Positions 1,342 through 26,431 of a stretch of 41,126 bases of DNA are shown here, in pieces. The DNA is from a virus (taxonomy: Duplodnaviria > Heunggongvirae > Uroviricota > Caudoviricetes), in IMG/VR virus record IMGVR_UViG_2706794694_000014; one strand, 5' to 3'. Made by a program: the position numbers and the translations under genes. The notes beneath the pieces were generated by a model that worked only from the letters and a program-made list of their open reading frames with translations, was not told the origin of the DNA and did no database searches. Numbering within the stretch: the stretch's first letter is position 1; each line of letters begins with the position of its first letter.

Positions 1342-1574
1342 NNNNNNNNNNNNNNNNNNNNNNNNNNNNNNNNNNNNNNNNNNNNNNNNNNNNNNNNNNN
1401 NNNNNNNNNNNNNNNNNNNNNNNNNNNNNNNNNNNNNNNNNNNNNNNNNNNNNNNNNNNNNNNNNNNNNNNNNNNNNNNNNNNNNNNNNNNNNNNNNNNN
1501 NNNNNNNNNNNNNNNNNNNNNNNNNNNNNNNNNNNNNNNNNNNNNNNNNNNNNNNNNNNNNNNNNNNNNNNNNN
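1342..1574. other. N-run (233 nt), assembly gap at stf/tfa boundary
   Basis: Run of n characters. Confidence 0.99.
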
Positions 1575-4286
1575 CATACCTACTGAGCCTTGTACACCCC
1601 AGGTATTTTGACCTGAGCTTGTATAACCATATTGATAAGTATCTTTAAAAACACTGGGGTTAAATCGACGGCCATCTCTATGGCTGTGATTACCAGCTGC
1701 ATTCGTGCTGCCACTTAAACTATGGGTATGCGCACCAGTGTTATTCGTGGATTTAGTGCCGTAATCAAACGACGATGTGGTTTTCGTCCCCAAATCCGTA
1801 CTGGATGCGCTGGCGCTGTGGGTATGCGATTTAATGCCGTCCTGTTCCTGAGACAATACGGCCCGACCACTGGCAGGTTTGCCCTTAATCGTCCAGCCAC
1901 GCATATCAGGGATCACGCCTGACGGATAAGCCGCTGCAAGTTTCGGGTATGCAGATTTGTCAAAAGCCTGCCCCTGCATCAGGGCATAGCCAGACGGAAC
2001 GGTATCTGATGGCCACGGGATTGGTGCGCCAGGCGGATAAAACTGCTCTGATGGCGTATAGAGTGAATAAACTGTACCGTCCGTTAACCCTTCCGGCTTA
2101 TTAGCAGAATATGCTGGTGACGTATGAATCGTCACGCTGGCATTACTGGTATAATCCCATTGAATATTTACACCAGTCGCATAATTTCCGATTGCAACGT
2201 AAATATCGTAAGTATCACCAGATGTATTAACCCAGGCAAAATTTGTAAACCCTGTCAATGTGCGCTGCCATAAAGCACCAGTAATCCCCTTCGGATTACC
2301 ATTACCTGCACGTAAAACAAGTTCAGATATACCTGCCTGTTGAGGTGACCCCACGTTAAATCCAGCGCCACCAATCAACGTAATTGAAACAACAGAACTC
2401 GCCTGTGGCATGGTTACCGTTGCTAATTTGAACCAACCAGCACCACCGCTGAATGACATTGTTGTTGAGTTAAGCGTACCAATATCTTTCGGCGTCAGTG
2501 TTATATCCGCTGAAAGCGCCTTACCATTCACCTTACGGGCAGAAGGTACCCGACCATTCGCATTGTCATTAGCTGCTTTCACTGCTTTCGGTGTCGCAGC
2601 AAGCGTTTCAGATGTGCTGTTGGTTGCACTACTGAGCTGGACAATTCCTTTTTGTGCTGTCGTAGCGTCCTGTGCGGTGTATTTCCCGTTAGCCAGGTCA
2701 TACGCGGCCTTAACGGCTTTTGGCGTTGCCGCCTGTGACTCGGAAGTGCTGTTAGTCGCACTGCTGAGCTGAACTATCCCTTTCTGTGCTGTCGTTGCAT
2801 CCTGTGCGGTGTATTTCCCGTTAGCCAGGTCATACGCGGCCTTAACGGCTTTTNNNNNNNNNNNNNNNNNNNNNNNNNNNNNNNNNNNNNNNNNNNNNNN
2901 NNNNNNNNNNNNNNNNNNNNNNNNNNNNNNNNNNNNNNNNNNNNNNNNNNNNNNNNNNNNNNNNNNNNNNNNNNNNNNNNNNNNNNNNNNNNNNNNNNNN
3001 NNNNNNNNNNNNNNNNNNNNNNNNNNNNNNNNNNNNNNNNNNNNNNNNNNNNNNNNNNNNNNNNNNNNNNNTGACGCCTGTCTGGTCGCCTCATCTTTTG
3101 AAGCAGACGCAGATGATGCCGATGACGCCGCCGAACTGGCGGACGATGCGGCAGCCGTTTTTGAGGATTCTGCGCTGGTTTCCGACGCTTTCGCGTTCGT
3201 TTCGGATGTCTTCGCTGCGGAAGCAGACCTCGCTGCTGCGCTGGCCTGTTCAGTGGCTTCGCCAGCCTTCGTTGTGGCTGTTGAAGCGGATGATGCGGCG
3301 CTTTCTGCCGATTTTCCGGCGGCGGTGGCACTGACTGCTGCCTCCTCTGCCTTAATGGACGCCTCACGGGCCGATGATGCAGCTGCTGTCTCAGAGTCTG
3401 CCGCAGCTGAGGCGCTCTGTTCCGCTGCCGTTTCAGAAGACTTAGCATTCGTCTCGGACGTTTTTGCCGCCTTCACGGAATTTCCTGCCGCCGTTGCCGA
3501 GGAGGCTGCACTGCTGGCGCTTGTGGAGGCGTTCGTTTCTGATGATTTTGCCGCCTCTTTGGAGGCCGCCGCATCTCTGGCTGAAGTGGCGGCTTCTGAC
3601 GCTTTCGTTGTCGCAGTGGATGCAGAAGTGGCTGCTGATTTTTGTGACGCTGCAGCATTCGTTTCTGACGTTTTCGCCGCACCGGCACTGGTGGCCGCCG
3701 CGCTTTTTGAGGACTCTGCAGCGGCAGCACTTTTTGATGCTTCAGTGGCCTTTGTTGATGCCGTTCCTGCGCTGGAAGACGCCTCCTGAGCCGAAGTCGC
3801 GGCCTGTCCGGCTGACGTGCTGGCTGCACGCGCTGAGCCTGCAGCATCAGTCGCATGGGTTGCCGCCTCACGGGCAGATGTGCCGGCATCACTGGCTGAC
3901 TTCTTCGCGGCTGCCGTGTTCTGTGCCACCGCGGACGCGTTACGCGCCACCTCTTCCACCATCAGTTCAAAACGGCGCAGAGCCTCCGGACGGGCATCAT
4001 CCTCCGTCATGGCACCGAGAAAATCATTCAGCGTACCGGGTCGGGAATCTTCATACACAGTGATGGTCCCGGCATGTGACGGCGGGAATCCTTCCACCAA
4101 CAGAATAACGCTGTACTGACCGTACTCAACGTCCATGCTGTAACGCCCGGCTTCATCCGGATTTTCTGAGGCCAGCGTGTTCACCACCACCGTGGTGCTG
4201 TTACGTTTTGCTTTCAGCTGGATTGTGCAGTTCTGTACCGGTTTTCCTGTGCCGTCTTTCAGTACACCTGAAATCTTTACTGCCAT
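1575..4286 (-). CDS. stf: Side tail fibre protein (lambda Stf homologue); C-terminus lost in gap, internal gap 2854-3071
   Basis: N-terminus [62 protein letters not shown] is near-identical to lambda Stf; long Ala/Ser/Thr-rich shaft; ATG at 4286 preceded by GGGGTG (track start 4292 is a GTG two codons upstream). Confidence 0.85.
2590..2853. repeat. Intragenic tandem repeat in stf (unit ~132 bp, at least 2 copies, continuing into gap)
   Basis: gtatttcccgttagccaggtcatacgcggccttaacggctttt occurs at ~2681-2723 and ~2811-2853; encoded peptide [41 protein letters not shown] repeated. Confidence 0.8.
2854..3071. other. N-run (218 nt) inside stf, adjacent to 132-bp tandem repeats
   Basis: Run of n characters immediately after a repeated 132-bp unit. 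Confidence 0.99.
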
Positions 4287-4295
4287 ATTCACCCC

Positions 4296-4326
4296 ACAAA
4301 AAAGCCCGCCTGAACCGGCGGGCTGT
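4296..4326 (-). terminator. Rho-independent terminator downstream of lom
   Basis: Minus strand agcccgcc-ggttc-aggcgggct followed by TTTTTT. Confidence 0.7.
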
Positions 4327-4350
4327 CATAACACTGTGTTACCTGGCTAA

Positions 4351-5413
4351 TCAGAATTTATAACCGACACCCACGATGAAACCGTCAGTGCGCCAGTCGC
4401 CACTGCCGGAGCCTTCATAAGCAATATCAATGGCCACGGATTCGGTCGGGTTAAACTGCACGCCAGCTCCCCACGCCAGAGACGTGTTGCTGTGGCGACC
4501 GTCATCACTTCCGGTCAGCACGTCGTGCGTTTTCCCCTTATTGTCAGTTACGCGGATATAATCCCCGGAAAAAGTCGACACACGGCTGTAAGCCACACCC
4601 GCCATCGCATACGCGCTGAACCANNNNNNNNNNNNNNNNNNNNNNNNNNNNNNNNNNNNNNNNNNNNNNNNNNNNNNNNNNNNNNNNNNNNNNNNNNNNN
4701 NNNNNNNNNNNNNNNNNNNNNNNNNNNNNNNNNNNNNNNNNNNNNNNNNNNNNNNNNNNNNNNNNNNNNNNNNNNNNNNNNNNNNNNNNNNNNNNNNNNN
4801 NNNNNNNNNNNNNNNNNNNNNNNNNNNNNNNNNNNNNNNNNNNNNNNNNNNNNNNNNNNNNNNNNNNNNNNNNNNNNNNNNNNNNNNNNNNNNNNNNNNN
4901 NNNNNNNNNNNNNNNNNNNNNNNCCAGCGGGTATCGCTGTAACGGGTCAGCTGGCGATTCTTGTCTCCTGCATAGCTGAACGACGTCACCATCCCCAGTG
5001 TGTCCGTAAACTCATAACGGTATTTCACGTTAATCCCGTTCAGATCATCACTGCCGGGAACGTTCGTCCGGGCATGAAGATACCCCGCGCTCAGCGTGGA
5101 CTGATGTTCAGACGCCCATGCAGGCGCACCGGATACGGACGGAATCTTCATGCCAGCGGGTATCGCTGTAACGGGTCAGCTGGCGATTCTTGTCTCCTGC
5201 ATAGCTGAATGACGTCACCAGCCCCAGCGTATCCGTAAACTCATAACGGTATTTCACGTTAATCCCGTTCAGATCATCACTGCCGGGAACGTTGGTCCGG
5301 GCATGAAGATACCCCGCGCTCAGCGTGGACTGATGTTCAGACGCCCATGCAGGCGCACCGGATACGGCCAGACAAATGGCTGCGGACAAAATTGCTGCAC
5401 AAACTTTACGCAT
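4351..5413 (-). CDS. lom: Lom-like outer membrane protein (Ail/Lom family), disrupted in assembly by a 300-nt N-run and a ~228-bp tandem duplicate of its 5' part
   Basis: N-terminus MRKVCAAILSAAICLAVSGAPAWASEHQSTLSAGYLHARTNVPGSDDLNGINVKYRYEFTDTLG and C-terminus ...DIAYEGSGSGDWRTDGFIVGVGYKF match lambda Lom; 4924-5151 nearly duplicates 5152-5380. Confidence 0.8.
4624..4923. other. N-run (300 nt) inside lom
   Basis: Run of n characters. Confidence 0.99.
4924..5151. repeat. Tandem duplicate (~228 bp, a few mismatches) of lom 5' coding region 5152-5380
   Basis: Direct comparison of the two segments; junction encodes ...TRWHEDSVR then restarts at the signal-peptide sequence VSGAPAWA. Confidence 0.85.
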
Positions 5414-5424
5414 AATTACCTCTC

Positions 5425-5465
5425 GCTTTTCTGCAATAAAAAAGGCGTCATTCCTGACGCCCTTT
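5425..5465 (-). terminator. Rho-independent terminator downstream of J (tJ-like)
   Basis: Minus strand ggcgtca-ggaa-tgacgcc followed by ttttttatt; A-run on the other side, so possibly bidirectional. Confidence 0.7.
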
Positions 5466-5483
5466 ATTGGGGTTATAAATATT

Positions 5484-8400
5484 TCAACGAATACTGATGC
5501 CGGAAGCGGCTTTTTTGGTCACAATCACCGTACAGTCGGTGATATTGCCTGCCCCCTGATTGCCTTTCTGGAAAATCTTAAACTCCAGAGTGACGCTTCC
5601 CCTGCCACTCGGCATATCAATAACTGCACTGTAACTACCGGGAATGGCCCCTTTAGTTTCTCTGGATGCGATTAATACGCCGTTTTTGCGAACTTCAAAA
5701 CCATAACCCGTGTATCGCGTGCCTCCTGGGTTATTTCCGCTCCCCGGATCGTCATACGCTATACCGTTAAAAATAATGGGCGGAATAATAATCTGGCGGT
5801 CAAAGTTATGATCATCGCTGATGGTGACTGTAACCGTACCGTTTGGTGTTTCCGTGTTACCCCACGTACCGACTTTTTTCGGGAAGGCTTTTGATACAGC
5901 TTTAACGAAATCTCCTCTGACCTGGGTCGCCTCCAGCATGCCCTTAATCGTACAGTTCTGGTTAATCGTGACATTGTTGAGCGTCCCTGAATTTGCATTC
6001 ACATTACCGCTGATATCCGCATTTTTAGCGGTCAGCTTTCCGTCTGGTGTCAGGGAAAATGCCGGCGGATTTCCACCGCTGGTAATGGTGGGAGCCGTCA
6101 GGCGTTTCAGGAACACGTCATTCATGAATATCTGGTTGCCCTGCGCCACAAACATCGGCGTTTCATTCCCGTTTGCCGGGTCAATAAACGCGATACGGTT
6201 AGCGGCAACCAGAAACTGGCTCAGTTTGCCTTCCTCCGTGTCCTCCATGCTGAGGCCAATACCCGCGACATAATGTTTGCCGTCTTTGGTCTGCTCAATT
6301 TTGACGCCCCACATGGCATTCCACTTATCGTTGGCGTCCTTCCACTCTTTCGAAAACTCCTCCAGTCTGCTGGCGTTATCCTCCGTCAGGTCGACTTTTT
6401 CCAGCAGCTCCTGGCCGAGATGGGATTCGGTTATCTGGCCTTTGAAAAAATCCAGGTAACCTTCCGCATCATCGCTCGCCCGACCGACAGCCTCCACGAA
6501 TGCTGATTTGCCGACGGTGTTCACACTGCGGATATAAAAGTAATAATCATGGCCCGGCTTAATATTGATACTGGCGGCTATCCAGTACAGCCCCGTGCCA
6601 AGGTAGCGGGCTGTGGTTTCAACCTGCCTGATATCCGCAATCCGTTTTTCCGAGAACCAGAACTCAAACTGTACCGTCGGGTCATAAACCGCAAGATGCG
6701 GCGTGGCGGTTATCTGAAAATAGCCCGGCGTCAGCTCAATCCGCGACGGCGCTGCCGGTGCGGCAATCCGGAACGATACCGACGCCGGATCGCCCTGCTG
6801 CCCCCACGCATTTACTGCCCGGACTGTCAGCCTGTAGTTCCCCAGAGCCAGTTGTGTGAAGCGGTAAGTGGTTTCCGTCGTCCGGGCCGTGCTGACCAGC
6901 CGCTCACGGCCGTCATCCGCTGCCACGGTCAGGCGAAGCAGGAAGCTCACGCCCTTCACCACCTTCGGCGTGTCCCAGCGGGCCAGCACCTGGTATTCCC
7001 CGCTGTCTGCGGTGACTTCTGCGGTCAGGTGCTGCACCGCTGGCGGCGTGACACCATTTACCGTGCCGCTCTGGTCGCCGTCAAAGTGCGCCCCGTTATC
7101 CACGATGGCCTCTTTTTCCGGTACATGCTGCACGGCAGTGATGGCATACGTGCCGTCGTCGTTCTCACGGATACTCACGCAGCGGAACAGGCGCTGGCGC
7201 AGCGTCGGCAGCTTCAGCCCCCATACGCTGTATTCAGCAACGCCGTCAGGAACACGGCTCACTTTCACCTTCACGCCGTCGGTGACGGACTGAACCTCCA
7301 CGCTGACCGGACTCCCCTGCCCGTCAACCAGGCTTATCAGCGTGGTGCCGGAAGATGGCAGCGTGATTTCACGGTCGAGCGTCAGCGTCCGGGTCTGGCT
7401 GTTTACCGCCAGCACGCGCCCGCCGGTGCGGATACCGGCATAGTCATCATCGCAGATTTCAATGACATCGCCCGGTACATGGCGAAGCCCTTCGGCACCC
7501 ACGCTGAAGTCCACGGTCTGCGTTTCCAGCAGTTCTGTTTTAATCAGCCACAGCCCGGCGCGGTGTGCCTGCCCCCGGCTGGTACAGCCAAAAGCATCCA
7601 TCTTCGTGACGTTACGACCGTAACGGGCAATGGCCTGCGTGTCCTCCACAAGCTCTGTCGCCGTCTCCCAGCCGTTATTCGGGTCAATCCAGTTCACCTC
7701 AACGGCATTATGGCGGTCCTTCAGGGCGCTGAAGCTGTAGCGGAACGGCGCACCATCATCCGGCATCACCACATTACTGCGGTTATAGGTCCACACCTTA
7801 TCCGACGGTCGGTCCTGCACGAACGTCAGCGTCTGCCCGTTCCATACCGGCATACAGCGCATCGCCGAGCAGAAATCACTGAGCACATCCCACGCCTTGC
7901 GCTGTGTGGTCAGGTACGCATTACAGGTGATGCGCGGCTCCGTGCCGCCAAAACCGTCCGGCACCGACTGATCGCAATGCTGGCCGATGACATACAGCGC
8001 CCATTTGTCCACATCCGCCGCACCAAGACGTTTCCCCATGCCGTAGCGCGGATGGGTCAGCATATCCCACAGACACCAGGCCATGTTGTTGCTGTATGCT
8101 GGCTTAAACGTTCCGTCCCAGATACCGCTGTATTGCCGCGTCTGCGGGTTATAGCTCGACGGCACCTGCAGAATGCGCCCGCGCAGATGATAATTACGGC
8201 TCACCTGCTGGCTGCCGAACTGCTCCGAATCCACCTGCACGCCGACCAGTGCCGTGTTCGGGTAGCACTGTTTCACATCGATGATTTCGGTGTATGACGA
8301 CCAGAGCGTTTTGTTCTGCAGCTGGTCTGTGGTGCTGTCTGGCGTCATCCTGCGCATCCGTATATTGAACGGGCGCGGCGGCAGGTTACCCACCACCACC

Positions 8401-8897
8401 GAGGCCAGATACTGCGAGGTGGTTTTGCCCTTAATGGTGATGTCTTTTTCCGTCACCCAGCCACCATTACGTTGTATCTGAACCAGCAGGCGGACTTCCG
8501 ACGGATTCCTGTCCCCCTTTGAGGTGGTTTCCACCAGTGCCTGCACACCGAAGGTAAAGCGCAGACGGTCAATGTTTGCCGACGTGATGGTCCGGGTGAT
8601 CGGCGTGTCGTATTTCACTTCCGTACCCAGTACCGTCTCGGAACCTGATGATTCAAATCCCTCCGGCGGTGTCTGTTCCTGCTCACCTGCCCGGAACACC
8701 ACCGTGACACCAGAGATGTTGGTATTCCCCTCACTGTCCAGCACCGGTGTACTGTTCAGCAGCACGCTTTTTAATCCATCCACCGGACCTTCAACCGGCC
8801 CTTCGCTGATGGTATCGATCACACTCAGCAACTGCGTGGACTTCAGGTTGTCCTTTGCTTCGCGCGGGGTATGCCCCTTACTGCTGCCTTTACCCAT
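5484..8897 (-). CDS. J: Tail tip central fibre / host specificity protein J, with C-terminal receptor-binding region differing from lambda
   Basis: 1137 aa; N-terminus [34 protein letters not shown] and most of the length match lambda J; the last ~150 aa do not match the lambda J C-terminus as recalled. Confidence 0.95.
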
Positions 8898-8957
8898 TCC
8901 TCACGCTCCATAAACGACAAAACCGCCCGGAGGCGGTTTCACATAAAACATTTTGCA

Positions 8958-9605
8958 TCAGCGACCAATCACCACAACCTGACCACCATCCCCTTCGTCT
9001 GCCGTGCTGATCTCCTGAGAAACCACACGTGACCCCACGCGCATTTCACCGTACAGAACAGGCAGAACATTGCCCTGGGCAACCATGTTATCCAGTGAGG
9101 AGAAATAGGTGTTCTGTTTGCCGTTATCTGTACTGGCTGCCGTGGGCGTCCTGGCTTTCGGTGCCAGCATCTGCGCCACTCCGCCCAGGATCATACTGGC
9201 CCCTGCCGCATACATGCCCGATACAGCCGCGGCCCCCAGCCAGCCCACAGGGTTCCACCATGCCACCGCAATCAGCGCCGCCCCAAGCACCACCTGAAAC
9301 ACACCGCCACTTTTAGCTCCCGCCAGACGCGGCACGATGTGGATCACGGCACCATTTGCCAGCGGCTCATTAAGACGGGCAGATAATTCATTTTCGCCTG
9401 CATCACGCCCGGCAATGCGCACCTGATACCAGCCCTCATTCAGTTTCTGACGAAACGCCGGGATCTGCATGGCCAGCGCCCGGATGGCTTCGGACCCCGT
9501 TTTCACTCGAAGGTCGATGCGGCGGCCAAATCGTTGTAAATCCCCGTAAAGGCAGATGCGTGCCATGCCCGGTGACGCCAGAGGGAGTGTGTGCGTCGCT
9601 GCCAT
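8958..9605 (-). CDS. I: Tail tip assembly protein I
   Basis: MAATHTLPLASPGMARICLYGDLQRFGRRIDLRVKTG... and C-terminus GNVLPVLYGEMRVGSRVVSQEISTADEGDGGQVVVIGR match lambda I. Confidence 0.9.
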   Translation of the reverse strand: MAATHTLPLASPGMARICLYGDLQRFGRRIDLRVKTGSEAIRALAMQIPAFRQKLNEGWYQVRIAGRDAGENELSARLNEPLANGAVIHIVPRLAGAKSGGVFQVVLGAALIAVAWWNPVGWLGAAAVSGMYAAGASMILGGVAQMLAPKARTPTAASTDNGKQNTYFSSLDNMVAQGNVLPVLYGEMRVGSRVVSQEISTADEGDGGQVVVIGR

Positions 9606-10246
9606 TTGTCGGTATACCTCTCTCGTTTGCTCAGTTGTTCAGGAATATGGTGCAGCAGCTCGCCGTCACCACAGTAAATGGCGGCATGATTCGGCACCGA
9701 TGAACCAAAACAGCACAGCAGCACATCGCCCGGCTGCGCCGCTGACAACGGCACCTGATACAGCCCTGTAGCCTCCAGATTATCCAGATAGAGATTCTGA
9801 CCGTGACGCCACCAGTCATCCCCGCGATGAAAATCCGGCATCTCAATCCCCGCCAGATGGTAAGCATCCCGGAACAGCGTGTAACAGTCCGTCACCCCGT
9901 GCTCAAAGCGCCGCCCGGTAAGATGTGGCACACAGCGGAACTTGTGAATCGCCCCCCGGCAGACCAGCCACCACGGCAAATCACTCTGCACCTGCAGCCG
10001 CCGGTCGGCCTCACTCAGCCAGGGCAGACCACCGGGGTGGCTGTGGACCAGCGCCACAATCTCACCCTGCATCTCTGCCCGCAGCCAGTCCTCCGGCGAC
10101 ATCCGGAAATACTCCTCCGGCTCACCGGAGATATTCACGCAGGGAAAATATCTTTCCCCCTCCGGTGTTCTCACCACGAAGCCGCACGACTCCGCTGGCG
10201 CACATCGCCGGGCGTGCGCCAGAATCGCTGATTCTGTCTCTGTCAT
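9503..10246 (-). CDS. K: Tail tip assembly protein K (JAB/MPN + NlpC/P60 domains)
   Basis: JAMM motif HSHPGG...SEAD and NlpC/P60 Cys motif GVTDCYTLF; overlaps the start of I by ~100 bp as in lambda; ATG at 10246. Confidence 0.9.
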   Translation of the reverse strand: MTETESAILAHARRCAPAESCGFVVRTPEGERYFPCVNISGEPEEYFRMSPEDWLRAEMQGEIVALVHSHPGGLPWLSEADRRLQVQSDLPWWLVCRGAIHKFRCVPHLTGRRFEHGVTDCYTLFRDAYHLAGIEMPDFHRGDDWWRHGQNLYLDNLEATGLYQVPLSAAQPGDVLLCCFGSSVPNHAAIYCGDGELLHHIPEQLSKRERYTDKWQRRTHSLWRHRAWHASAFTGIYNDLAAASTFE

Positions 10247-10251
10247 GGGAT

Positions 10252-11158
10252 TTACTGCGAAAGTTTGTTAATGGAAAGGAAGCCGCCAAAGTTGCCGACG
10301 TTATTGCGAAACTTACAGCCGCTCAGGCATTTGCTGCATTTATCCTTCGTGATATCGGACGTCGGCTGATCATATTCATCCGCGACCGCCGGACCGTGAT
10401 AACCGCACTCATCGCCGCGATAGGTCCAGGTGCAGGTGTTGGCCAGCATGATACGTCCCGGAAAAACAGCGCCATCCGTTTCCGTCGGCGTGGACAGTAC
10501 AAANNNNNNNNNNNNNNNNNNNNNNNNNNNNNNNNNNNNNNNNNNNNNNNNNNNNNNNNNNNNNNNNNNNNNNNNNNNNNNNNNNNNNNNNNNNNNNNNN
10601 NNNNNNNNNNNNNNNNNNNNNNNNNNNNNNNNNNNNNNNNNNNNNNNNNNNNNNNNNNNNNNNNNNNNNNNNNNNNNNNNNNNNNNNNNNNNNNNNNNNN
10701 NNNNNNNNNNNNGAGGCACTCACCGCGCTCAGTTCGCTGCACTGCTCGATGCGCCAGCGGCTGATCACCTCCTGCTCCGGATCGGCGTCACTGTTTCCGT
10801 TGACGAAGTTCACCGCATCCAGAAAACGGGCGTAAACCTTACGCCGGACCACCGTTCCGCCGACCAGACTCTGCAGATCTTCCGCCATCCCGGTGACCAT
10901 GCCGTGCAGGTTAGAAACCGTCAGTGTCGGACGGGCAGCACTGCCCTTGCCGTTCAGTTCAAAACCACTCCCCTGAATGGGATACGGCTGATACTGTCGC
11001 CCCTGCCAGGTGACCGGCTCACCTTTTTCGTTCTGCTCATTACAGAAAAAATAACGTTCTCCACCGACCTCTGTCAGATCGATTTCCCAGAGCACCACCT
11101 GGGCTGACTGAGTGAGGCGTGTCGTCTCATGATGTGTTTCCTGTGGAATATCCTGCAT
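10252..11158 (-). CDS. L: Minor tail protein L (interrupted by N-run; flanks are contiguous in protein sequence)
   Basis: MQDIPQETHHETTRLTQSAQVVLWEIDLTEVGGERYFFCNEQNEKGEPVTWQGRQYQPYPIQGSGFELNGKG...; C-terminal Cys cluster TCTWTYRGDECGY...CSKCLSGC. Confidence 0.9.
10504..10712. other. N-run (209 nt) inside L
   Basis: Run of n characters; flanking codons encode ...SELSAVSA(S) and FVLSTPTETDG, which are adjacent in lambda L as recalled. Confidence 0.99.
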
Positions 11159-11167
11159 CAGAGACTC

Positions 11168-11497
11168 CTATGCCACGACCTGTTCAAAATCTGCCGTTAT
11201 GGTTACCCACAACGCCCCCACGCTTGCCGACCATTTACGACAAACCACCCTGATCGGCTTCCAGTCATAAGGTGGCGTCCACTGAAATGCGCGGACGCCA
11301 CCGTGCCGTTCCAGAAAGGCTTTTAAAGATGGGTGTTCACATTTACGAACACGTATCGTCACGCTGTAAGTCGACAACTGGTTATTCAGTCCCGCCGCAC
11401 GACGCTGTTCATAACCATCGCCCAGCTTCACTGTCACCACTTTCGGCTCTGATACCACATTCATATCCGGGCGCACTTTCCAGTGAAACGTCTCCAT
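11168..11497 (-). CDS. M: Minor tail protein M
   Basis: 109 aa, METFHWKVRPDMNVVSEPKVVTVKLGDGYEQRRAAGLNNQLSTYSVTIRVRK... matches lambda M. Confidence 0.9.
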   Translation of the reverse strand: METFHWKVRPDMNVVSEPKVVTVKLGDGYEQRRAAGLNNQLSTYSVTIRVRKCEHPSLKAFLERHGGVRAFQWTPPYDWKPIRVVCRKWSASVGALWVTITADFEQVVA

Positions 11498-14886: not shown

Positions 14887-15261
14887 CGTCAGCCCCTCAT
14901 GCTCCAAATCCCCGGCATTATCAATGGCCCCCATACCGCTCAGCGACAGAACCATCTCCGCCCCCGCACCCAGGGCATCATACGACCATGTTGTAATAAC
15001 GGATGCGTAAAGCGTCTCAACATCCTGAGACTGTTCCGCATTCCACAGTGAGCGGGAAACCAGCCAGGCATTGATATCCATCCCCATCCGCAGAAAAGCA
15101 ATCTGTCGTTCAGCCTCCGGCAGTTCTCCCTCCCCGGCATCAAACTTTGCCGTTCGCTGCTGAACAAACGTCAGATATTCAATTCTCTGCAGCCCGGACA
15201 GCTCACTGAGCACCACGGACTGTTTTTCATAATTAAACGTGTCCTGTTTCAGAAACATCAT
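14872..15261 (-). CDS. G: Tail assembly chaperone G
   Basis: Position between V and T/H; MMFLKQDTF... resembles the lambda G start MFLKTESFEH; ATG at 15261 with GGTGGAG RBS. Confidence 0.8.
   Translation of the reverse strand: MMFLKQDTFNYEKQSVVLSELSGLQRIEYLTFVQQRTAKFDAGEGELPEAERQIAFLRMGMDINAWLVSRSLWNAEQSQDVETLYASVITTWSYDALGAGAEMVLSLSGMGAIDNAGDLEHEGLTPEKS
14878..14884 (-). promoter_or_regulatory. Candidate -1 frameshift slippery site (GGAAAAG on minus strand) in the last codons of G
   Basis: G frame ...ccg gaa aag tcc tga; -1 frame reads gcc gga aaa gtc ctg... into T. Not an exact X-XXY-YYZ heptamer. Confidence 0.4.
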
Positions 15262-15271
15262 GTTCTCCACC

Positions 15272-15298
15272 TGTAAAAAAGCCCCGAATAACCGGGGC
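15272..15298 (-). terminator. Intrinsic terminator-like hairpin between V and G
   Basis: Minus strand gccccgg-ttat-tcggggc followed by tttttt, 20-45 nt downstream of the V stop. Confidence 0.6.
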
Positions 15299-15318
15299 AA
15301 ATGATGAGTATCGTCCTG

Positions 15319-16062
15319 TTAACCTGCTGCGCTGACAGTCACCGTAGCCACTGCCACAAAATTCCCGTCAGCGGTCATGCCCACAATGCTGACACTGCCC
15401 TGCTTCACGCCTTTCACCGTGGCCACAAGCCCGTTCAGGGTCACCGTGGCAGTCTGTGGATCTGTCGAATGCACACTGATCGCTTTGTCACTGGCTCCGT
15501 CAGGTTTTACTGTAAAGGTCAGCGTGGTGGTTGCTCCCACTTTTACACTGGCAGATGCCGGTGCCACCGTCAGCCCGGTAACGCTCACTGTTTCAGTGCC
15601 TTCCTCTGCCAGATACGGACGCCCCACACCGCTGATTTTCACTGTGCGGGTCATCACGTCTTTTGAGGCAATGGTTTTACCCAGTGAACTCAGCCAGCCA
15701 CGGAAAACATCAACAGTACCGTTGGGATATTTGATACGAAACGCGCAGACTTCACCGGAGTCGAACAACTGAACCAGTTTTTTCTGCCCGCTGTCACCCG
15801 GACGCCAGGCCAGCGTCGCCGAAGTATCACCAACGGATTTCTGCCCCTGGGTTGTCGTTTTCCAGTCTGCATCTTCATCATCGAGATAAGTGTCATCTTC
15901 TGCATCAGCGGTCATTTCGCCAGGTTGCAGATCCTTCACCATCGCAAGACGCAGCCAGTCAGTGTCCGATAAAGGGTTCGCAAACGCATCGCCCTTGCCG
16001 GTATACATCCAGAACGTCGTTCCCGCACCTTTCGTTTTTGCCAGTGGATTTGGTGTGGTCAT
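15319..16062 (-). CDS. V: Major tail protein V with C-terminal Ig-like domain
   Basis: MTTPNPLAKTKGAGTTFWMYTG... ; C-terminal beta-rich Ig-like segment (VSVTGLTVAPASASVKVGATTTLTFTVKPDGASDKAISVHSTDPQTATV); AAGGAGG RBS before ATG at 16062. Confidence 0.9.
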   Translation of the reverse strand: MTTPNPLAKTKGAGTTFWMYTGKGDAFANPLSDTDWLRLAMVKDLQPGEMTADAEDDTYLDDEDADWKTTTQGQKSVGDTSATLAWRPGDSGQKKLVQLFDSGEVCAFRIKYPNGTVDVFRGWLSSLGKTIASKDVMTRTVKISGVGRPYLAEEGTETVSVTGLTVAPASASVKVGATTTLTFTVKPDGASDKAISVHSTDPQTATVTLNGLVATVKGVKQGSVSIVGMTADGNFVAVATVTVSAAG

Positions 16063-16072
16063 TACCACCTCC

Positions 16073-16474
16073 TTAATTCGTGTACGTGATCTGGTACGTG
16101 ATTTCCGCCATCGCCCAGGTGGCCATCTCATTATCACGTTGATAGTTAAAACCGAGTGGGATCAGGGTGTCGATGAGTCCGGAAAGTGCTGGTACATCAT
16201 TCAAGGCCGGGAAAATGGTGCTCTCCATCCACATATCCAGCTCTGAATCCGGTGCCTGTGCCCGGATGAAGACAGCAATATGCAGAACAGCCTGCCAGTC
16301 ATCTTCATCCGTCATTTTTCCGGTGTACTGAGCATCACTCAGCCACACCGCCACGGCAGGCAGTTCCTGCGCATCAACAAATGCCGGAAGCCCGTCAAAA
16401 AACGTGGCGCTGTCTCCACACTGTTCCCGAAGGCGTGCCAGTACGACCTGGCGGATTTGTGTATGTCGGTTCAT
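16073..16474 (-). CDS. U: Tail terminator protein U
   Basis: ...GDSATFFDGLPAFVDAQELPAVAVWLSDAQYTG...DSELDMWMESTIFPALNDVPALS resembles lambda U; ATGA overlap with the Z stop. Confidence 0.85.
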   Translation of the reverse strand: MNRHTQIRQVVLARLREQCGDSATFFDGLPAFVDAQELPAVAVWLSDAQYTGKMTDEDDWQAVLHIAVFIRAQAPDSELDMWMESTIFPALNDVPALSGLIDTLIPLGFNYQRDNEMATWAMAEITYQITYTN

Positions 16475-17049
16475 CGGGTCAGCCATAACCTCAGTTGTTG
16501 TTTCAGTGCATACCCCAGCTGTTTCGGCATTTCCGCAGCAATGATGCGGTCGCGGGCATCTTCAAATGCCTGTGTCAGCGGTCCGGACAGCGGGATTTTC
16601 ACCACATCAATGGGGTAACGATTTTTGCCATCAATACGCCGCATCACATGCCAGCGACCATTCGCCAGTTGCTGAATAAACGCATCCCGGAAAAGATATT
16701 TACCCACCTTCAGCACACTGCCACGGTACTGCAGTTTTCCACCACGCCGGGCCAGTCTGACCCGGGCTGTCCCCAGCTTAATGGCGGGCAGATTGCCCCG
16801 GTTAACGCGGATCCTGGCCGTCATTTTTCCTGACGGACTGGCTTTAAACACCCGGACACGCTGACGTACCAGTTTCAGGGGGATCCCTTTCACCTGGTTA
16901 TCTCCCGCAACGGTATTCCCGGCAACCTGCCGGGTGGCAACCGAGACCGCTTTCTGTGCCACACGGTTTATCGCCCATGCGCTGGCCTGTGGCACCATAC
17001 GGGTATCAAGGCTGTTCAGATTGCGGATGGCATTCTCAAGCCCCTTCAT
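16471..17049 (-). CDS. Z: Tail completion protein Z
   Basis: 192 aa, same length and position as lambda Z; basic protein. Confidence 0.8.
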   Translation of the reverse strand: MKGLENAIRNLNSLDTRMVPQASAWAINRVAQKAVSVATRQVAGNTVAGDNQVKGIPLKLVRQRVRVFKASPSGKMTARIRVNRGNLPAIKLGTARVRLARRGGKLQYRGSVLKVGKYLFRDAFIQQLANGRWHVMRRIDGKNRYPIDVVKIPLSGPLTQAFEDARDRIIAAEMPKQLGYALKQQLRLWLTR

Positions 17050-17060
17050 CCCACACCTCT

Positions 17061-17336
17061 TTACTCAATAAAGATCATTGGCTTACCGTTAAAGCGTTCA
17101 TGCCGTGTGACCGTCCATTGTTGTCCGTCATAAACAACGCGATCCCCGCGCCGTGGGCGGTATCCCGAAGAAAACACCACCAGAGAGACCGCAGGTCCGG
17201 ACAGAGCATTCAGCTCTGCCAGTGTTTCTCCCGGGATCACAGTCATATCGACATCATTAATCGAGGCTGTCTTTCCCATCTTTCTGACCGTGATCGCATC
17301 CATACGCGCTGCCAGCCGGGAAAAGGGATCAGACAT
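17061..17336 (-). CDS. Head-tail joining protein (FII-like position)
   Basis: 91-aa ORF between head genes and Z; assigned by position and size only. Confidence 0.5.
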   Translation of the reverse strand: MSDPFSRLAARMDAITVRKMGKTASINDVDMTVIPGETLAELNALSGPAVSLVVFSSGYRPRRGDRVVYDGQQWTVTRHERFNGKPMIFIE

Positions 17337-17652
17337 TGAGTTTTACCGGCACTTCTTCTGCACTGGTTCCGGCATCTGCCCAGACAACCCCGACCAGCGG
17401 ATCAGAGCCGCTGTTAGTCAGCTGAACTTTTCCGGACTTCAGATAAACCTTCTTACCCGTTTTCATGTCATCCGTTTTCAGCTTAGGCAGCATAAACACA
17501 CCTTCGGTCAGGCCGTCGCCTGTTTCACCCTGTGGAATATCGGTCAGTGCCACCGCAAAAACATCACCCACCTGCACCAGATCTCCGCTGCTGATGGCTG
17601 CACTGGCAACAATCGCCACCGTTTTTCCTTCTTCTACAAAATTCTTTGCCAT
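17329..17652 (-). CDS. Capsid-associated small protein (DUF2190-like, putative decoration or head completion)
   Basis: 107-aa ORF directly downstream of the capsid gene; GGAGA RBS before MAKNFVEEGK; family assignment from memory. Confidence 0.5.
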   Translation of the reverse strand: MAKNFVEEGKTVAIVASAAISSGDLVQVGDVFAVALTDIPQGETGDGLTEGVFMLPKLKTDDMKTGKKVYLKSGKVQLTNSGSDPLVGVVWADAGTSAEEVPVKLNV

Positions 17653-17738
17653 AACTGTCTCCGCACAGCCCCGTTCAGGGGCTGATTTCAGGTACAAAAA
17701 AAGCCCTTACGGGCCATCAGAGTTGTTGTCTGCGACGT

Positions 17739-19697
17739 TTACGCCGTACATTTCACCAGACCGCGGTGATCAACTGGCGCGACACCGGCGTCAATACGCA
17801 CTTTCGTTGTCACGCCATCCACACTGAAGCCCTCCATCTGATCAATATATGGCGTATCCACACCGTTGAGATAAGCCACTTCAATCGTATCGGAGCCTTT
17901 TGACGCAGCCAGGTAGAAGGTGGTCTGGCTGTTATCATCAAGACGAGGCTCTGCAATAACGGTCGCAAAATCTTTCACCGGGTTAATAATACCGGCGTTA
18001 ATGTCGGCCCCCTTGACACTTGAGGAGCGAATGACCTGGTTAGCAACAGACTCCATCGCCGTCGGTACCAGTACGAACGCAGGACGAATATTCAGATGAC
18101 GCTCCCCCTCTTTCTGAACGCGCATCAACTGGCGGGCTTTATCCAGCGATGCCACGTCCATTGCAGCGCTATCCAGTACGTTTGCATGTTTCGCTTTATC
18201 GAACAGACTTACATTATCTGTGGAGATTTTCGGGTTAGACGTCAGAATGGCATAAACCAGATCGGCAATAGTGGATTTCGCCGCACGGCCCAGTTTCATC
18301 GGGACATCGGTCAGCATATTCAGATCATCATTGATAATGGCCTGACGGGTGATACTGAACAGCTCGCCATAGGTCGCCAGTGCAATAGTGGCCTGTTTAT
18401 CTCCGGTGGTGACGTATTTATATTCCGCCCCTTCACGCACCTGACGCAGAGCACTGAAGCCCCCCATACCCACACGATGGGCAATTTTAAAATCAGACAA
18501 CTGACCTTTCCGCGTCCACTGTTCATAGGTTTCAGGGGCATCTTCCCAGCCCTGCAGAATGGCTTTGTTCGCAACATCCAGCAGAATATTACCGAAGTCA
18601 GACGTACTGTGTGTGAACGCCGCACCGACCATCTGCATCGGGTTATAACTGGAAACCCCAATACCCCGTTCAGTCAGTGACATACGGGCATATTCACGCA
18701 GGGTCATCCCGTTGTAGACATTATCACGTTCGGTTTTTTCAAATCCGGCACGCGCCATCAGCGCCTGGCGGATCCCGTCCCCCACAAAATTACCGTTTCC
18801 GGCATAAATATGAGCCGGGGTATTTTTATTGGATGGCGTGGACTCGCGCCCCATCTCGTTCAACAGCTTTTCGCGGGCCTGCTCCAGCGAACATTCAGGA
18901 TCGGCAAGACACTGAGCCTGCAGCGTCTGATAACGCCCGCCAAACATGGCAAACAGATCATTAATACCGTTTACACGCGCTTTTTGCTCTGCCAGTACCT
19001 GCGCACGGATACTGTTTTCATCCACCACGGGTGCTGCTGCCTGCACTGGCGTCCGGGAGGCTGCAGGTTCATCATCCTGTACGCGTGGAGCACTGTTGCG
19101 TGGCGGAGTAATCATGTTTCGAATGGATTCCGGCATCTTTTTAAATTCCTCTGTACGTTTTGACTGAATACATGCCATTGCCTTAACGGCTGGCGTCACC
19201 TGATCAGCAAATCCCTGTGCCAGACATTCGGCACCGGACATCCAGGTCTCATCCGCCAGCATGGCAGCAATTTCATCGGTGGTTTTCCCGGTTTTCTGTG
19301 CATAAGCGGGTAACAGAACCGCCTCAACCTTATCGAGCAGGTCGGCATAGGTGCGCATGTCCTCCGCATCACCGCCCGTAAAGCCAAATGGTTTATGAAT
19401 CATCATGAAGGTGTTTTCCGGCATAATGACCGGGTTTCCCACCATCGCAATGACCGACGCCATTGACGCCGCCACACCGTCGACATAAACGGTAATGGAC
19501 GCACCATGTGTTTTCAGCGCATTAAAAATGGCGATGCCTTCAAAGACATCGCCACCCGGTGAATTAATATGGAGATTAATGTGGGTGATATCGCCCAGTG
19601 CATTCAGATCACTGATAAACTGCTTCGCTGTAACACCCCAGAAACCAATCTCGTCATAAATATAAATATCCGCGTCACTCTGGTGACCAGCCTGCAT
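17739..19697 (-). CDS. Fused prohead protease (ClpP/S49-like) - scaffold-like linker - major capsid protein
   Basis: N-terminal DIYIYDEIGFWGV...INSPGGDVFEGIAIFNAL...MIHKP (ClpP-type serine protease); central Ala/Gln-rich linker; C-terminal ~300 aa capsid-like; start at MQAGHQ 13 nt after the portal stop. Confidence 0.8.
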   Translation of the reverse strand: MQAGHQSDADIYIYDEIGFWGVTAKQFISDLNALGDITHINLHINSPGGDVFEGIAIFNALKTHGASITVYVDGVAASMASVIAMVGNPVIMPENTFMMIHKPFGFTGGDAEDMRTYADLLDKVEAVLLPAYAQKTGKTTDEIAAMLADETWMSGAECLAQGFADQVTPAVKAMACIQSKRTEEFKKMPESIRNMITPPRNSAPRVQDDEPAASRTPVQAAAPVVDENSIRAQVLAEQKARVNGINDLFAMFGGRYQTLQAQCLADPECSLEQAREKLLNEMGRESTPSNKNTPAHIYAGNGNFVGDGIRQALMARAGFEKTERDNVYNGMTLREYARMSLTERGIGVSSYNPMQMVGAAFTHSTSDFGNILLDVANKAILQGWEDAPETYEQWTRKGQLSDFKIAHRVGMGGFSALRQVREGAEYKYVTTGDKQATIALATYGELFSITRQAIINDDLNMLTDVPMKLGRAAKSTIADLVYAILTSNPKISTDNVSLFDKAKHANVLDSAAMDVASLDKARQLMRVQKEGERHLNIRPAFVLVPTAMESVANQVIRSSSVKGADINAGIINPVKDFATVIAEPRLDDNSQTTFYLAASKGSDTIEVAYLNGVDTPYIDQMEGFSVDGVTTKVRIDAGVAPVDHRGLVKCTA

Positions 19698-19710
19698 CCT
19701 GAACCAGGAA

Positions 19711-24558: not shown

Positions 24559-24839
24559 AAGGGATATCAGTTAAGTTATCCCGTGTAGGGTATAAGCCAT
24601 TATCAAAGCCACTCTGTAGGGAGTGGCTTTTGTAATGGCAATAAAAAGCCCCGCGAATGCGAGGCTAAATCCAGGTATTTTTAATGACTGGCTCTTATTT
24701 CAACGCAGCCCCTTACCGCGCGCCAGATGCTCAACTTCAAGCATCAGCAATGAGATGTTTAATCTGGATTCACTCCAGAAGTGATCACCACCCTGTCTAC
24801 AGAGCCAAATGTGAAGGATGATGAGTAAAATTATCGCTA

Positions 24840-25322
24840 TCATCGAAGGCATTGCGTCCTGATATATTCCTGAAGCGTTCTCAGTGCTGTCTGGTCTCTG
24901 ATGATTCCGTCCCGGATACCGAGAACGTTTCGTCCAGCAACTGGAGAGAGTTCGACGGTGGCATCATTGCCCATGCCGGAGGCGCTGGAGGTTTCGGCTG
25001 AGGATGGCACAGAGCATTTTCCTTTGACGAGCACCCGACCACCATTATCAAGCTTGCGCCGAAGAGCATCATTTTCAGCTTTCGCATCAGCCAACTCCTT
25101 CGTGTATTTAGCATCGAGTACATCAGCAGCACGCTGGCGTTGCTGCATGTCAGTAATGGTGGCGGTCGCCTGCTTCAGCTCACTGACTTTTTTATCACGC
25201 TGTTCTTTGTAGGCGATGGCGTTATCACGGTAATGATTGACCGCCCACGACAGGCAGACGATGATGCAGATAACCAGAGCATAAATAATCGCGGCGACTC
25301 TGCTCACTGATCTATCCCCCAA
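24840..25322 (-). CDS. Rz: Spanin inner-membrane subunit Rz (i-spanin)
   Basis: N-terminal [37 protein letters not shown]..., coiled-coil, ...LQEYIRTQC. Confidence 0.9.
24881..25087 (-). CDS. Rz1: Spanin outer-membrane lipoprotein Rz1 (o-spanin), embedded in Rz in another frame
   Basis: [21 protein letters not shown] lipobox followed by a Pro-rich segment [16 protein letters not shown]. Confidence 0.85.
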
Positions 25323-25837
25323 CAGGCTAATGCGCTTTCCTGGTCACGACGAATAACCTGTCCATAGCAGTTATTTGAACGTATGCGGCAATCGCGCCCA
25401 CCATCTTTTATCCACCAGCGAATCGCCTCGCATGCACCTTTACGATCACCAGCATTCAGCCGCTTATAAAACGTCGACGGAAAACACTTACCGGGGCCAA
25501 TGTTATAGGGACAAAATGACGCGATACCCGCTTTTTGTGGCTCGGTCAGTGGTACTTTAATATTGCGCTCCACCCATGCCAGCGCCTTATCACGCTCAAT
25601 GGCGTTGACCTGGTCGCATTTTTCCTTCGACAGTTTCATACCGGGAAAAACGGGTTTTCCATCCACCATCGTGGCACCCCGACAGATGGTCCAGATGCCG
25701 GACCCATCGCGGTATGCCGTTGTGTGGTTACCTTCTTTTTCATCCAGAAACTGGTCGAGAATATCAGGCGCGGGCGCACCGACGGCAATCAGTGCCAGAA
25801 CGGCAGCCGACAGGCCGTATCTGATTTTTGCGTTCAT
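25304..25837 (-). CDS. R: Endolysin, GH24 lysozyme with N-terminal signal-anchor-release (SAR)-type segment
   Basis: [24 protein letters not shown]... then E-x8-D-x5-T catalytic motif ([16 protein letters not shown]); resembles E. coli RrrD. Confidence 0.9.
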
Positions 25838-25982
25838 GGATATTTATCAGGATTTATCGGTTTCTGCCCACGGACAGGTTTATCTGTTCCGGTCAGTGAC
25901 TTAAGGTTGTGATTCCGGAGGAGTCTTCAGAGAACCAGTAATTCTTCCTGGTAGCTTTCCTTTGTAGGTTATCCAAACATTC

Positions 25983-26292
25983 NNNNNNNNNNNNNNNNNN
26001 NNNNNNNNNNNNNNNNNNNNNNNNNNNNNNNNNNNNNNNNNNNNNNNNNNNNNNNNNNNNNNNNNNNNNNNNNNNNNNNNNNNNNNNNNNNNNNNNNNNN
26101 NNNNNNNNNNNNNNNNNNNNNNNNNNNNNNNNNNNNNNNNNNNNNNNNNNNNNNNNNNNNNNNNNNNNNNNNNNNNNNNNNNNNNNNNNNNNNNNNNNNN
26201 NNNNNNNNNNNNNNNNNNNNNNNNNNNNNNNNNNNNNNNNNNNNNNNNNNNNNNNNNNNNNNNNNNNNNNNNNNNNNNNNNNNNNNNNNNNN
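25983..26292. other. N-run (310 nt) removing most of the holin gene
   Basis: Run of n characters. Confidence 0.99.
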
Positions 26293-26364: not shown

Positions 26365-26431
26365 AACCCCACCTCGCAGATGCGGGTGCTGTGTAATGGA
26401 AATAAAAAGGCCACCTGACGTGGCCACCAGA

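Follow-up and report, generated by a model that had tools for sequence, protein, structure and literature searches.

Runs of N and an apparent lom duplication in a draft Escherichia coli lambdoid prophage scaffold very probably stem from short-read assembly

The prophage locus and its runs of N

The window, i.e., the whole stretch of 41,126 nucleotides that was analysed, derives from contig CWUS01000006.1 of NCBI assembly GCA_001250595.1, a draft E. coli scaffold which carries a lambdoid prophage on the minus strand. Five runs of N interrupt this sequence, next to which no other ambiguity codes occur (Table 1). Four of them locate to the tail module L-K-I-J-lom-stf-tfa and the fifth to the essD-ydfR lysis cassette, where it takes out the 3' two-thirds of the essD holin gene and the 5' three-quarters of ydfR. 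The gap regions were found in a median of 2-3 places per E. coli genome. Tail module and lysis cassette were further seen to exist in several near-identical copies each in most E. coli genomes. All five runs are identically present in the public record, hence they do not represent masking that was added afterwards. The deposited annotation calls genes around them, whereby L is given as products of 149 and 83 aa, lom as products of 101 and 90 aa and stf as products of 405 and 426 aa. A literature search revealed no paper on CWUS01 or GCA_001250595.

Table 1. Features of the window with positions, strand and remarks.
Feature	Position	Strand	Remarks
sitD, last gene of sitABCD	1..858	+	Pfam ABC-3; chromosomal or cargo flank of Rac-site prophage
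tfa (tail fibre assembly), 3' fragment	1071..1341	-	72-aa Caudo_TAP fragment in source record; 5' 314 nt inside gap 1
Gap 1, 233 N	1342..1574	.	Real distance 538 bp (tfa 5' end and stf 3' end)
stf (side tail fibre), middle and C-terminal fragment	1575..2853	-	426-aa Phage_fiber_2/Collar fragment in source record
132-bp tandem repeat in stf, cut by gap 2	2614..2853	-	TRF: period 132, 1.8 copies, 91% matches
Gap 2, 218 N	2854..3071	.	Real distance 242 bp in sister assembly CWVO
stf, 5' fragment	3072..4286	-	99.8% identical to CWVO; repaired stf starts at 4286
lom, 3' fragment (nt 328-600)	4351..4623	-	90-aa Ail_Lom fragment in source record; aligned to reference lom genes
Gap 3, 300 N	4624..4923	.	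Real distance 66 bp (lom nt 262-327)
lom copy A (nt 47-261), redundant second copy	4924..5138	-	Abuts the 300-N run; 215 nt visible
lom, 5' part including copy B (nt 1-275)	5139..5413	-	Contiguous with J; copy B at 5153-5367
Junction of the lom copies	5120..5160	.	41-mer; microhomology of only 4-5 nt (CCGT/CGTA)
L (minor tail protein), 3' fragment	10252..10503	-	83-aa Phage_tail_L fragment in source record
Gap 4, 209 N	10504..10712	.	Exactly 1 bp missing
L, 5' fragment	10713..11158	-	149-aa Phage_tail_L fragment in source record
ydfR (DUF1327), 3' remnant, last 27 codons	25901..25982	-	Mapped onto A14 and CDF6 annotation; repaired 116 aa
Gap 5, 310 N	25983..26292	.	Real distance 417 bp: ydfR 5' 269 nt, spacer, essD 3' 144 nt
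essD holin, 5' remnant, first 24 codons	26293..26364	-	Mapped onto A14 and CDF6 annotation; repaired 71 aa

Distances across the gaps and repaired genes

The distances between the gap flanks were derived from the sister assembly CWVO01000006.1, which is free of N here, and from complete genomes; the designation as sister relates to an identical J protein, and the CWVO flanks were identified to be 99.8-100% identical to the window. For gaps 1-4 the values in Table 1 were obtained from CWVO01000006.1 and for gap 5 from strains A14 and CDF6. The N count equals the replaced length, as a length-preserving mask would demand, at none of the five gaps, and the mismatch goes both ways, with 233 N standing for 538 bp and 209 N for a single base. 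The flanks are nonetheless colinear with gapless relatives, and four of the five gaps stand in for sequence that these relatives possess.

The gap 1 distance of 538 bp was found in CWVO, UDRL, CDF6, A2, mEp460_ev081 and F2_407 and, from BLAST coordinates, also in NCTC9082. The adjoining stf fragment is 100% identical to CWVO and, over 1575-2783, 99.4% identical to strain A2. Within this fragment TRF located the 132-bp tandem repeats which the preliminary description had placed before the stf gap, and they do run into gap 2. This repeat is a genuine feature of the stf gene; 2.3 copies are present in CWVO, which is free of N here, and 2.4 in the complete genome F2_407, while TRF on stf of A2 and mEp460_ev081 did not find the 132-bp array. 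The flanks of gap 2 reside at 7809 and 8052 in CWVO, giving 242 bp, and the same distance was obtained for F2_407, mEp460_ev081 and NCTC9082, as compared to 110 bp for A2 (colinear BLAST). As the repeat number differs between stf alleles, it is solely CWVO that settles the length of gap 2 as 242 bp.

For gap 3 the distance amounts to 66 bp in 10 of the 10 related sequences that contain both flanks. In the case of gap 4, one base lies between the flanking 25-mers in all eight related sequences containing both of them, which is exactly what had been proposed for L, where about 1 nt was said to be really missing. The base is polymorphic, being A in A14, CDF6, UDRL and A2 and G in CWVO and NCTC9082, and its addition yields an intact L which differs at 2 residues from that of A14. 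Sister assemblies possess N-runs in L as well (61 and 235 N), whereby the run of CWVI begins at the same base as gap 4; in CWUT the sequence is broken in L no more than 11 nt away, and a further break in stf lies at most 9 nt from the right edge of gap 2. A prophage switch point at gap 4, suspected because CDF6 identity falls to its left, was rejected, as A14 keeps 99.0-99.9% identity to the left and to the right of it and no break occurs at this point in CWVO and UDRL. Finally, the gap 5 distance of 417 bp was obtained from A14 and CDF6 with flanks of 99.9-100% identity, and for a 5001-nt query of this region 12 of the 12 top matches span 5108 bp.

Once the gaps were filled and one lom period was removed, tfa (194 aa), stf (986 aa), lom (199 aa), L (232 aa), YdfR (116 aa) and EssD (71 aa) were all found to be intact. 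This justifies the caution expressed in the preliminary description that L, lom, stf, tfa and the holin should not be called pseudogenes, and the N-runs are no proof of a defect in any of the interrupted prophage genes. The same holds for its reading of the N-runs as scaffolding artefacts, i.e., assembly gaps of unreliable length, which is supported by the intact genes and by the distances in relatives, differing from the N counts at all five positions. It could be argued that the runs hide inserted DNA, e.g., small mobile elements, or are length-preserving masks, so that the genes would be truly disrupted, given that the runs are alike in size (209-310) and that some sequence collections contain masked stretches. 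We regard this as extremely unlikely: the runs are part of the NCBI record with genes called around them, their lengths are at odds with every relative in both directions, neither direct repeats nor target-site duplications were found at the edges of any gap, CWVO is continuous across near-identical flanks and the N-runs of sister assemblies at the same sites have other lengths.

The tandem repeat in lom

Beside gap 3 a tandem repeat was identified by TRF (4924-5367, period 229, 1.9 copies, 97% matches), which covers lom nt 47-275 and confirms the near-exact duplicate of about 228 bp that had been noted next to the gap in the 5' coding region. Both copies reside on one side of gap 3 and are joined without N between them by the sequence GCAGGCGCACCGGATACGGACGGAATCTTCATGCCAGCGGG. 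They differ at 5 of the 215 visible nucleotides (2.3%), at sites where they match different natural lom alleles. Copy B shows 0 mismatches in 215 to the Rac-site lom of NCTC9082, whereas copy A represents a different mix of alleles, being mEp460-like at 4981/4992. When lom was rebuilt with either copy A or copy B, the best identity in complete genomes was 99.1% and 99.3%, respectively, values too close to single out one copy as native.

In the preliminary description a real duplication was left possible, and indeed an isolate-specific event can be envisaged in which microhomology-mediated slippage generated the second copy and lom became inactivated by the frameshift. The copies follow one another head to tail and share 4-5 nt of microhomology at their border, which fits such an event but is short enough to occur by chance, the junction lies inside a contig as the copies meet without N, and the source record holds a frameshifted 101-aa product from the lom 5' part. 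Against this, the sister assemblies CWVO, CWUT and UDRL each possess a single intact lom (199 aa), copy A is missing from all three and the period-229 repeat was not found by TRF in CWVO. Since these assemblies, with identical J, show about 0-1 SNP per 8 kb relative to the window when L is left aside, any duplication would have to be very recent, yet the two copies are 2.3% apart and carry variants of different natural alleles. The junction gave no single-piece match in 5,426 complete E. coli genomes, and the 41-mer was not found in GTDB representative genomes or IMG/VR, hence it is not widespread; the repeat moreover sits right beside an N-run that puts 300 N for 66 bp. A real duplication is thus very unlikely. 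Judged from position next to a gap, alternative-allele variants and lack of the second copy in the sister assemblies, the lom repeat is almost certainly a false duplication that arose in assembly.

Two prophage types and the scaffold order

Over window 1-1341 the sequence matches the Rac-site sitD-tfaR segment of at least nine complete genomes with 100% identity, and window 6400-41126 shares 99.0-99.97% identity with the A14 prophage at dusA. The homology of the NCTC9082 Rac-type prophage to the window extends only as far as about position 11110 in L, a short way from gap 4, and at variant sites in L and lom the dusA type and the Rac type alternate among sister assemblies in the manner of a checkerboard. 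Taken with the recurrent gap edges, this suggests that the L-to-tfa module is common to two prophages, and from these patterns across sister assemblies we infer that the strain harbours at least two lambdoid prophages with a common tail module.

No integrase was found in the window prophage, which terminates at a Panacea gene. In 9 of 10 places this gene and an identical neighbouring 139-aa protein were located on that side of the dusA site where zur/lexA reside. Queries with this 139-aa protein, a LexA-like protein, TerL and a DUF968 protein, all of them common, which were meant to reach the 10 kb to the right of the window and to show if zur/lexA come after the Panacea gene, gave only long unrelated contigs. 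The body of the window is also possessed by A14, CDF6 and UDRL, the latter having an identical J protein, and in all of them it ends in tfa-RT-SLATT-dinI-int-dusA. With a Rac-site flank on a dusA-type body and no integrase, the scaffold is probably chimeric, the sitABCD flank of Rac-site type being joined to a body which relatives carry at dusA. This join of two prophage loci had not been noticed in the preliminary description.

The opposite view, namely that the scaffold order is correct and describes one hybrid prophage at the Rac site, running from an A14-like body over A2-like stf and tfaR to sitABCD, appears unlikely but draws some support, as CWVO01000006.1 shows the same order ompN-uspF-sitABCD-tfa-stf-lom-J into the head genes, free of N in this stretch, lambdoid tail-fibre regions are highly mosaic and the Rac-site prophage of NCTC9082 carries sitD-tfaR-stf-lom-J. 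However, CWVO comes from the same project series and may thus repeat the same misjoin, CWUT links the same body to a UDRL-type stf with 100% identity, and the missing integrase, the Panacea end and the dusA-type ends of A14, CDF6 and UDRL speak against it. Among the complete genomes, none of those ranked joins sitD colinearly to window 1093-12000, the best 15 places all starting at 1093. Furthermore, we take stf-tfa to have the same chromosomal direction at the dusA and Rac loci, as suggested by gene orders and the K-12 map, wherefore a single crossover between the loci would delete about 1.8 Mb rather than give the scaffold order. A far-reaching variant, in which both scaffold order and lom structure are real and recombination of a dusA-type phage with a resident Rac-site element formed the hybrid, is highly improbable. 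If it held true, sitABCD would reside directly behind a functional tail-fibre module and unequal exchange between two alleles of lom would have left the partial duplication as its scar.

Proposed origin and significance

It is very probable that the N-runs are short-read scaffolding gaps, that the lom duplication is false and that two prophages share the affected module. The gap lengths, the genes intact on repair, the sister assemblies without duplication and the allelic differences between the copies, which are documented by sequence comparison, are what this explanation builds on; the exact software steps behind the artefacts we infer. It is assumed that contigs of a short-read draft were linked by read pairs and that the sequence between them was written as N of estimated length; the lengths of the runs carry no information. 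The two prophages would be an A14-like one, of the kind integrated at dusA, and an element at the Rac site adjacent to sitABCD. Reads from these paralogues may have conflicted at variant sites, whereby contig extension would have stopped there; the 1-bp gap in L coincides precisely with a base at which the prophage types differ as A or G. Two alleles of lom nt 47-275 may both have been retained and set end to end instead of being merged, which would result in the false 229-bp tandem duplication beside the gap and in the apparent frameshift. Consistent with such a course of events, SSPACE and GapFiller were described as greedy, capable of false joins and writing gaps of unknown size as N (PMC5320598), and false duplications typically accompany assembly gaps and allelic k-mers (PMC9516828).

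The value of the findings is of a practical rather than a biological kind. If the record is read literally, L, lom, stf, tfa and the holin emerge as five false pseudogenes or split genes, with ydfR in addition, next to which it yields a false lom frameshift and duplication and probably also a false prophage, free of an integrase and seeming to carry the sitABCD iron/manganese transporter as cargo. Errors of this kind would pass on to surveys of prophage completeness, tail-fibre diversity, Lom variants and phage cargo that are based on draft scaffolds. The case also documents that such gaps can be resolved from sister assemblies without reads.

Comparison with known systems

The window resembles drafts produced by SSPACE followed by GapFiller (PMC5320598), an example pipeline which may not be that of CWUS01, in its variable N-runs between colinear contigs. 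As in read-pair scaffold gaps generally, the runs fall within prophage modules that exist in multiple copies, their lengths bear no relation to the true distance and genes are split in the annotation; unlike the usual case, 209 N were entered in L for just one base, an overestimate of unusual extent. The lom repeat in turn matches the false 'heterotype' duplications described by Ko et al. 2022 (PMC9516828), where two differing versions are kept in tandem by a gap, in that its differences are those of alternative alleles and an independent assembly lacks the duplication. It departs from them in that the lom versions would stem from paralogous prophages of a haploid genome instead of from the haplotypes of a diploid one, and in that the gap follows the second copy and does not, as in the textbook layout, separate the two. 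Regarding the prophages themselves, the lambdoid dusA prophages of A14 (NZ_CP028760.1) and CDF6 (NZ_CP158429.1) share the body with the window, which however is devoid of their RT-SLATT-dinI-int end, and the Rac-site prophages with sitABCD of NCTC9082 (NZ_LR134080.1) and 30COLEC (NZ_CP070930.1) share its sitD-tfaR flank.

N-runs and gene calls in the deposited record

The 41,126-bp window, in which a lambdoid prophage lies on the minus strand, contains exactly five N-runs, numbered here as gaps 1 to 5, and no other ambiguity codes. The same N-runs are present in the source contig CWUS01000006.1 (GCA_001250595.1; 65,786 bp), whose record positions minus 14,632 give window positions, and as the genes of this record were called around them, ending and resuming at the N-runs, the runs are original to the deposited draft scaffold. 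Within the record, L is split into 149 + 83 aa, lom into 101 + 90 aa and stf into 405 + 426 aa, tfa is represented by a 72-aa fragment, and the 101-aa frameshifted Lom product corresponds to window 5108-5413 (minus strand). A mechanical ORF listing gave spurious ORFs across the N-runs at 1071-4292, 25893-26336 and 25969-26427, one of them a 1073-aa 'protein' in which tfa and stf are fused over two gaps.

Features of the window, gap lengths and gene products after repair
Feature	Window position	N count	True distance (bp)	Product or status
Gap 1 (tfa/stf)	1342-1574	233	538	
Gap 2 (stf)	2854-3071	218	242	
Gap 3 (lom)	4624-4923	300	66	
Gap 4 (L)	10504-10712	209	1	
Gap 5 (essD/ydfR)	25983-26292	310	417	
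stf 132-bp repeat	2614-2853			1.8 copies
lom repeat	4924-5367			period 229, 97% matches
lom copy A	4924-5138			
lom copy B	5153-5367			
HTH_36 gene	33212-34030 (minus strand)			272 aa
Short tandem repeats	33611-33765			periods 12, 21, 24
139-aa ORF and 190-aa SocA/Panacea-domain protein	40138-41126			4-nt overlap, prophage end
tfa				194 aa, intact ORF after repair
stf				986 aa, intact ORF after repair
lom				199 aa, intact ORF after repair
J				1137 aa, intact ORF after repair
I				215 aa, intact ORF after repair
K				247 aa, intact ORF after repair
L				232 aa, 2 residues unlike A14 L, intact ORF after repair
Lysozyme				177 aa, intact ORF after repair
YdfR				116 aa, intact ORF after repair
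Holin EssD				71 aa, intact ORF after repair

Gap lengths derived from relatives

A look-up of the J protein (1137 aa, complete) revealed identical copies in seven contigs (five of the seven listed). The sister draft contig CWVO01000006.1 (GCA_001256815.1, 65,572 bp) shares the gene order of the window, lacks N-runs in this region and is identical to the window flanks at 100% (1-1341, 1575-2853), 99.8% (3072-4623), 99.7% (5127-10503) and 99.95% (10713-19105), whereby the flanks of gaps 1-4 lie 538, 242, 66 and 1 bp apart. The comparison further included the complete genomes A14, CDF6, A2, F2_407 and NCTC9082, the phage mEp460_ev081 and the draft contig UDRL01000005.1 (UDRL). The distance for gap 1 recurred in every relative with both flanks, that for gap 3 in 10 of 10 relatives and that for gap 2 in four, with colinear BLAST against A2 giving 110, i.e., one 132-bp unit less. 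For gap 4, the preliminary description had supposed that about 1 nt was really missing in L, which proved exact, the flank distance being 1 bp in 8 of 8 relatives. The distance for gap 5 was obtained from A14 and CDF6 (flanks 99.9-100% identical), and all 12 of the 12 best complete-genome matches to a 5001-nt query around this gap span 5108 bp.

The N counts hence err both ways, being too long for gaps 3 and 4 and too short for gaps 1, 2 and 5, and the earlier view of the N-runs as assembly gaps of unreliable length is confirmed by the five counts as set against 538, 242, 66, 1 and 417 bp. Because the errors go in both directions, a length-preserving mask over real sequence and hidden inserts under N were both ruled out. 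Gap estimates in the sister drafts are at times correct and at times far off: in CWUT01000017.1, 61 N stand in for 270 bp of UDRL sequence and another run of 250 N for 251 bp, and CWVI01000019.1 carries an N-run of its own (235 N in L).

Repaired genes

For repair, fill sequence from CWVO and A14 was put in place of the N-runs and one 229-bp lom period was cut, yielding 40,891 bp. The 3' end of stf and the 5' end of tfa fall within gap 1, and gap 5 takes up 144 nt at the essD 3' end together with 269 nt at the ydfR 5' end. Once repaired, tfa, stf, lom, L and EssD are intact, in line with the earlier advice that the interrupted genes not be called pseudogenes. In E. coli A2 (NZ_CP028772.1, 'complete'), lom, I, K, L, H and T of the same tail module are annotated as frameshifted, which suggests uncorrected long-read indel errors and therefore renders this genome unfit for judging reading frames.

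The 132-bp unit of the stf repeat is found in 2.3 copies in CWVO and in 2.4 copies in the complete genome F2_407, and gap 2 begins within the third unit. The repeat is a genuine part of the gene.

The lom repeat

Copy B of the lom repeat continues without a break into the lom start and J, and copy A leads directly into the N-run of gap 3, where 300 N stand for 66 bp. The copies join at ...GATTCCGT/C/CGTATCC... with a microhomology of only 4-5 nt (junction sequence GCAGGCGCACCGGATACGGACGGAATCTTCATGCCAGCGGG), and the period of 229 results in a lom frameshift. Of 215 sites, 5 differ between the copies (2.3%), all five matching known allelic differences: copy B shows 0/215 mismatches to the Rac-site lom of NCTC9082 and one to that of A2, and copy A resembles mEp460 at 4981/4992 and is mixed at the other sites. 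In CWVO, CWUT and UDRL, sister assemblies with prophage bodies only ~0-1 SNP per 8 kb away from that of the window except in a small L patch, lom is single and intact (199 aa). A real duplication would therefore have to be younger than the divergence of the sisters, which does not fit copies that differ by 2.3%. The junction 41-mer was not found in GTDB representative genomes or IMG/VR, and a 161-nt query over the junction gave two-piece, single-copy matches only among 5,426 complete E. coli genomes. On sequence comparison, the lom duplication is almost certainly an assembly artefact; the preliminary description had favoured this reading, and the single lom of the sisters and the allelic nature of the copies speak against the real duplication that it left possible.

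Location of the gaps

Every gap region is part of a sequence family with a median of 2-3 locations per E. coli genome. The N-run of CWVI begins at the exact same L base as gap 4, the 61-N break of CWUT in L lies 11 nt from that of the window, and its 250-N break in stf lies at most 9 nt from the right edge of gap 2. The missing L base is polymorphic, being A in A14, CDF6, UDRL and A2 and G in CWVO and NCTC9082. At the L variable sites 10453-10474 and 10964-10987 two variant types alternate, one being that of the dusA-site prophages A14, CDF6 and UDRL and the other that of the Rac-site prophage of NCTC9082, and the pattern of alternation is unlike between CWUS, CWVO, CWUT and CWVI. The same checkerboard, varying by assembly, was identified at the lom sites 5210-5299 and 5393/5396, as expected from consensus switching between paralogous copies. 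The NCTC9082 Rac-site prophage has the order sitD-tfaR-stf-lom-J-I-K-L at ~95% identity to the window, and this homology extends to ~11110 in L, not far from gap 4. As the simplest reading, two prophages in the strain may share the L-to-tfa module, whereby contig extension would stop at sites where their reads conflict and the consensus would flip between the paralogous copies.

A probably chimeric scaffold

Window 1-1341 (sitD, spacer, tfaR 3' end) matches the Rac-site flank ompN-uspF-sitABCD-tfaR of at least nine complete genomes at 100% identity, and window 6400-41126 shares 99.0-99.97% identity with the A14 dusA prophage, through the Panacea gene at the window end. Together with the identical 139-aa protein next to it, this gene (40554-41126) adjoins the dusA site on the zur/lexA side in 9 of 10 places, its usual location being at attR of dusA. 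The prophages of A14, CDF6 and UDRL (the latter with an identical J protein) end in stf-tfa-RT-SLATT-dinI-int-dusA; the window prophage as scaffolded has no integrase. In CWUT the same prophage body is joined to a UDRL-type stf at 100% identity; in CWUS and CWVO it is joined to an A2-like stf, followed by sit. Gene orders and the K-12 map show stf-tfa pointing the same way along the chromosome at the two loci, so that a real single crossover would delete ~1.8 Mb and not yield the order of the scaffold. The scaffold is thus probably chimeric, fusing the Rac-site and dusA loci, and there is a good likelihood that the misjoin falls between 1341 and ~6750. That the gene order is real and free of any misjoin is unlikely; CWVO displays the same order in a stretch without N-runs, but it stems from the same project series as CWUS and may carry the same error.

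A pair of reverse transcriptase (RT) and SLATT-domain genes, likely defence cargo, lies between tfa and dinI-int of the dusA prophage at L017 44871-46770, L005 7194-9093 and L024 18244-20143 (A14, CDF6, UDRL, respectively); the window lacks this pair and has sitD in its position.

Other features in the window

The short tandem repeats within the HTH_36 gene resemble replication-origin iterons inside an initiator gene, and the arrangement of the 139-aa ORF and the Panacea protein is reminiscent of a Panacea-type toxin-antitoxin pair. Within the C-terminal, receptor-binding part of J, a patch at 6000-6700 fits none of the complete-genome references well (5-25 mismatches per 100 nt); this patch is common to the sister assemblies and is ordinary tail-tip mosaicism.

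Comparison with known assembly errors

Altogether, the N-runs and the lom repeat are an assembly artefact without new biology, their sole value being to warn against taking pseudogenes, prophage boundaries and cargo in draft scaffolds at face value. A widely used pipeline combines greedy scaffolding with gap filling, possibly creating false joins, and writes gaps of unknown size as N (PMC5320598); it is one example of how such gaps may arise. False duplications were reported to be recognizable by allelic k-mers and an associated gap (PMC9516828). Unlike in that report, the 'alleles' of the window lom would be paralogous prophage copies, and, as an awkward point, the two copies abut without N between them. 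In its allelic differences and its adjoining gap, the window lom is like these false duplications.
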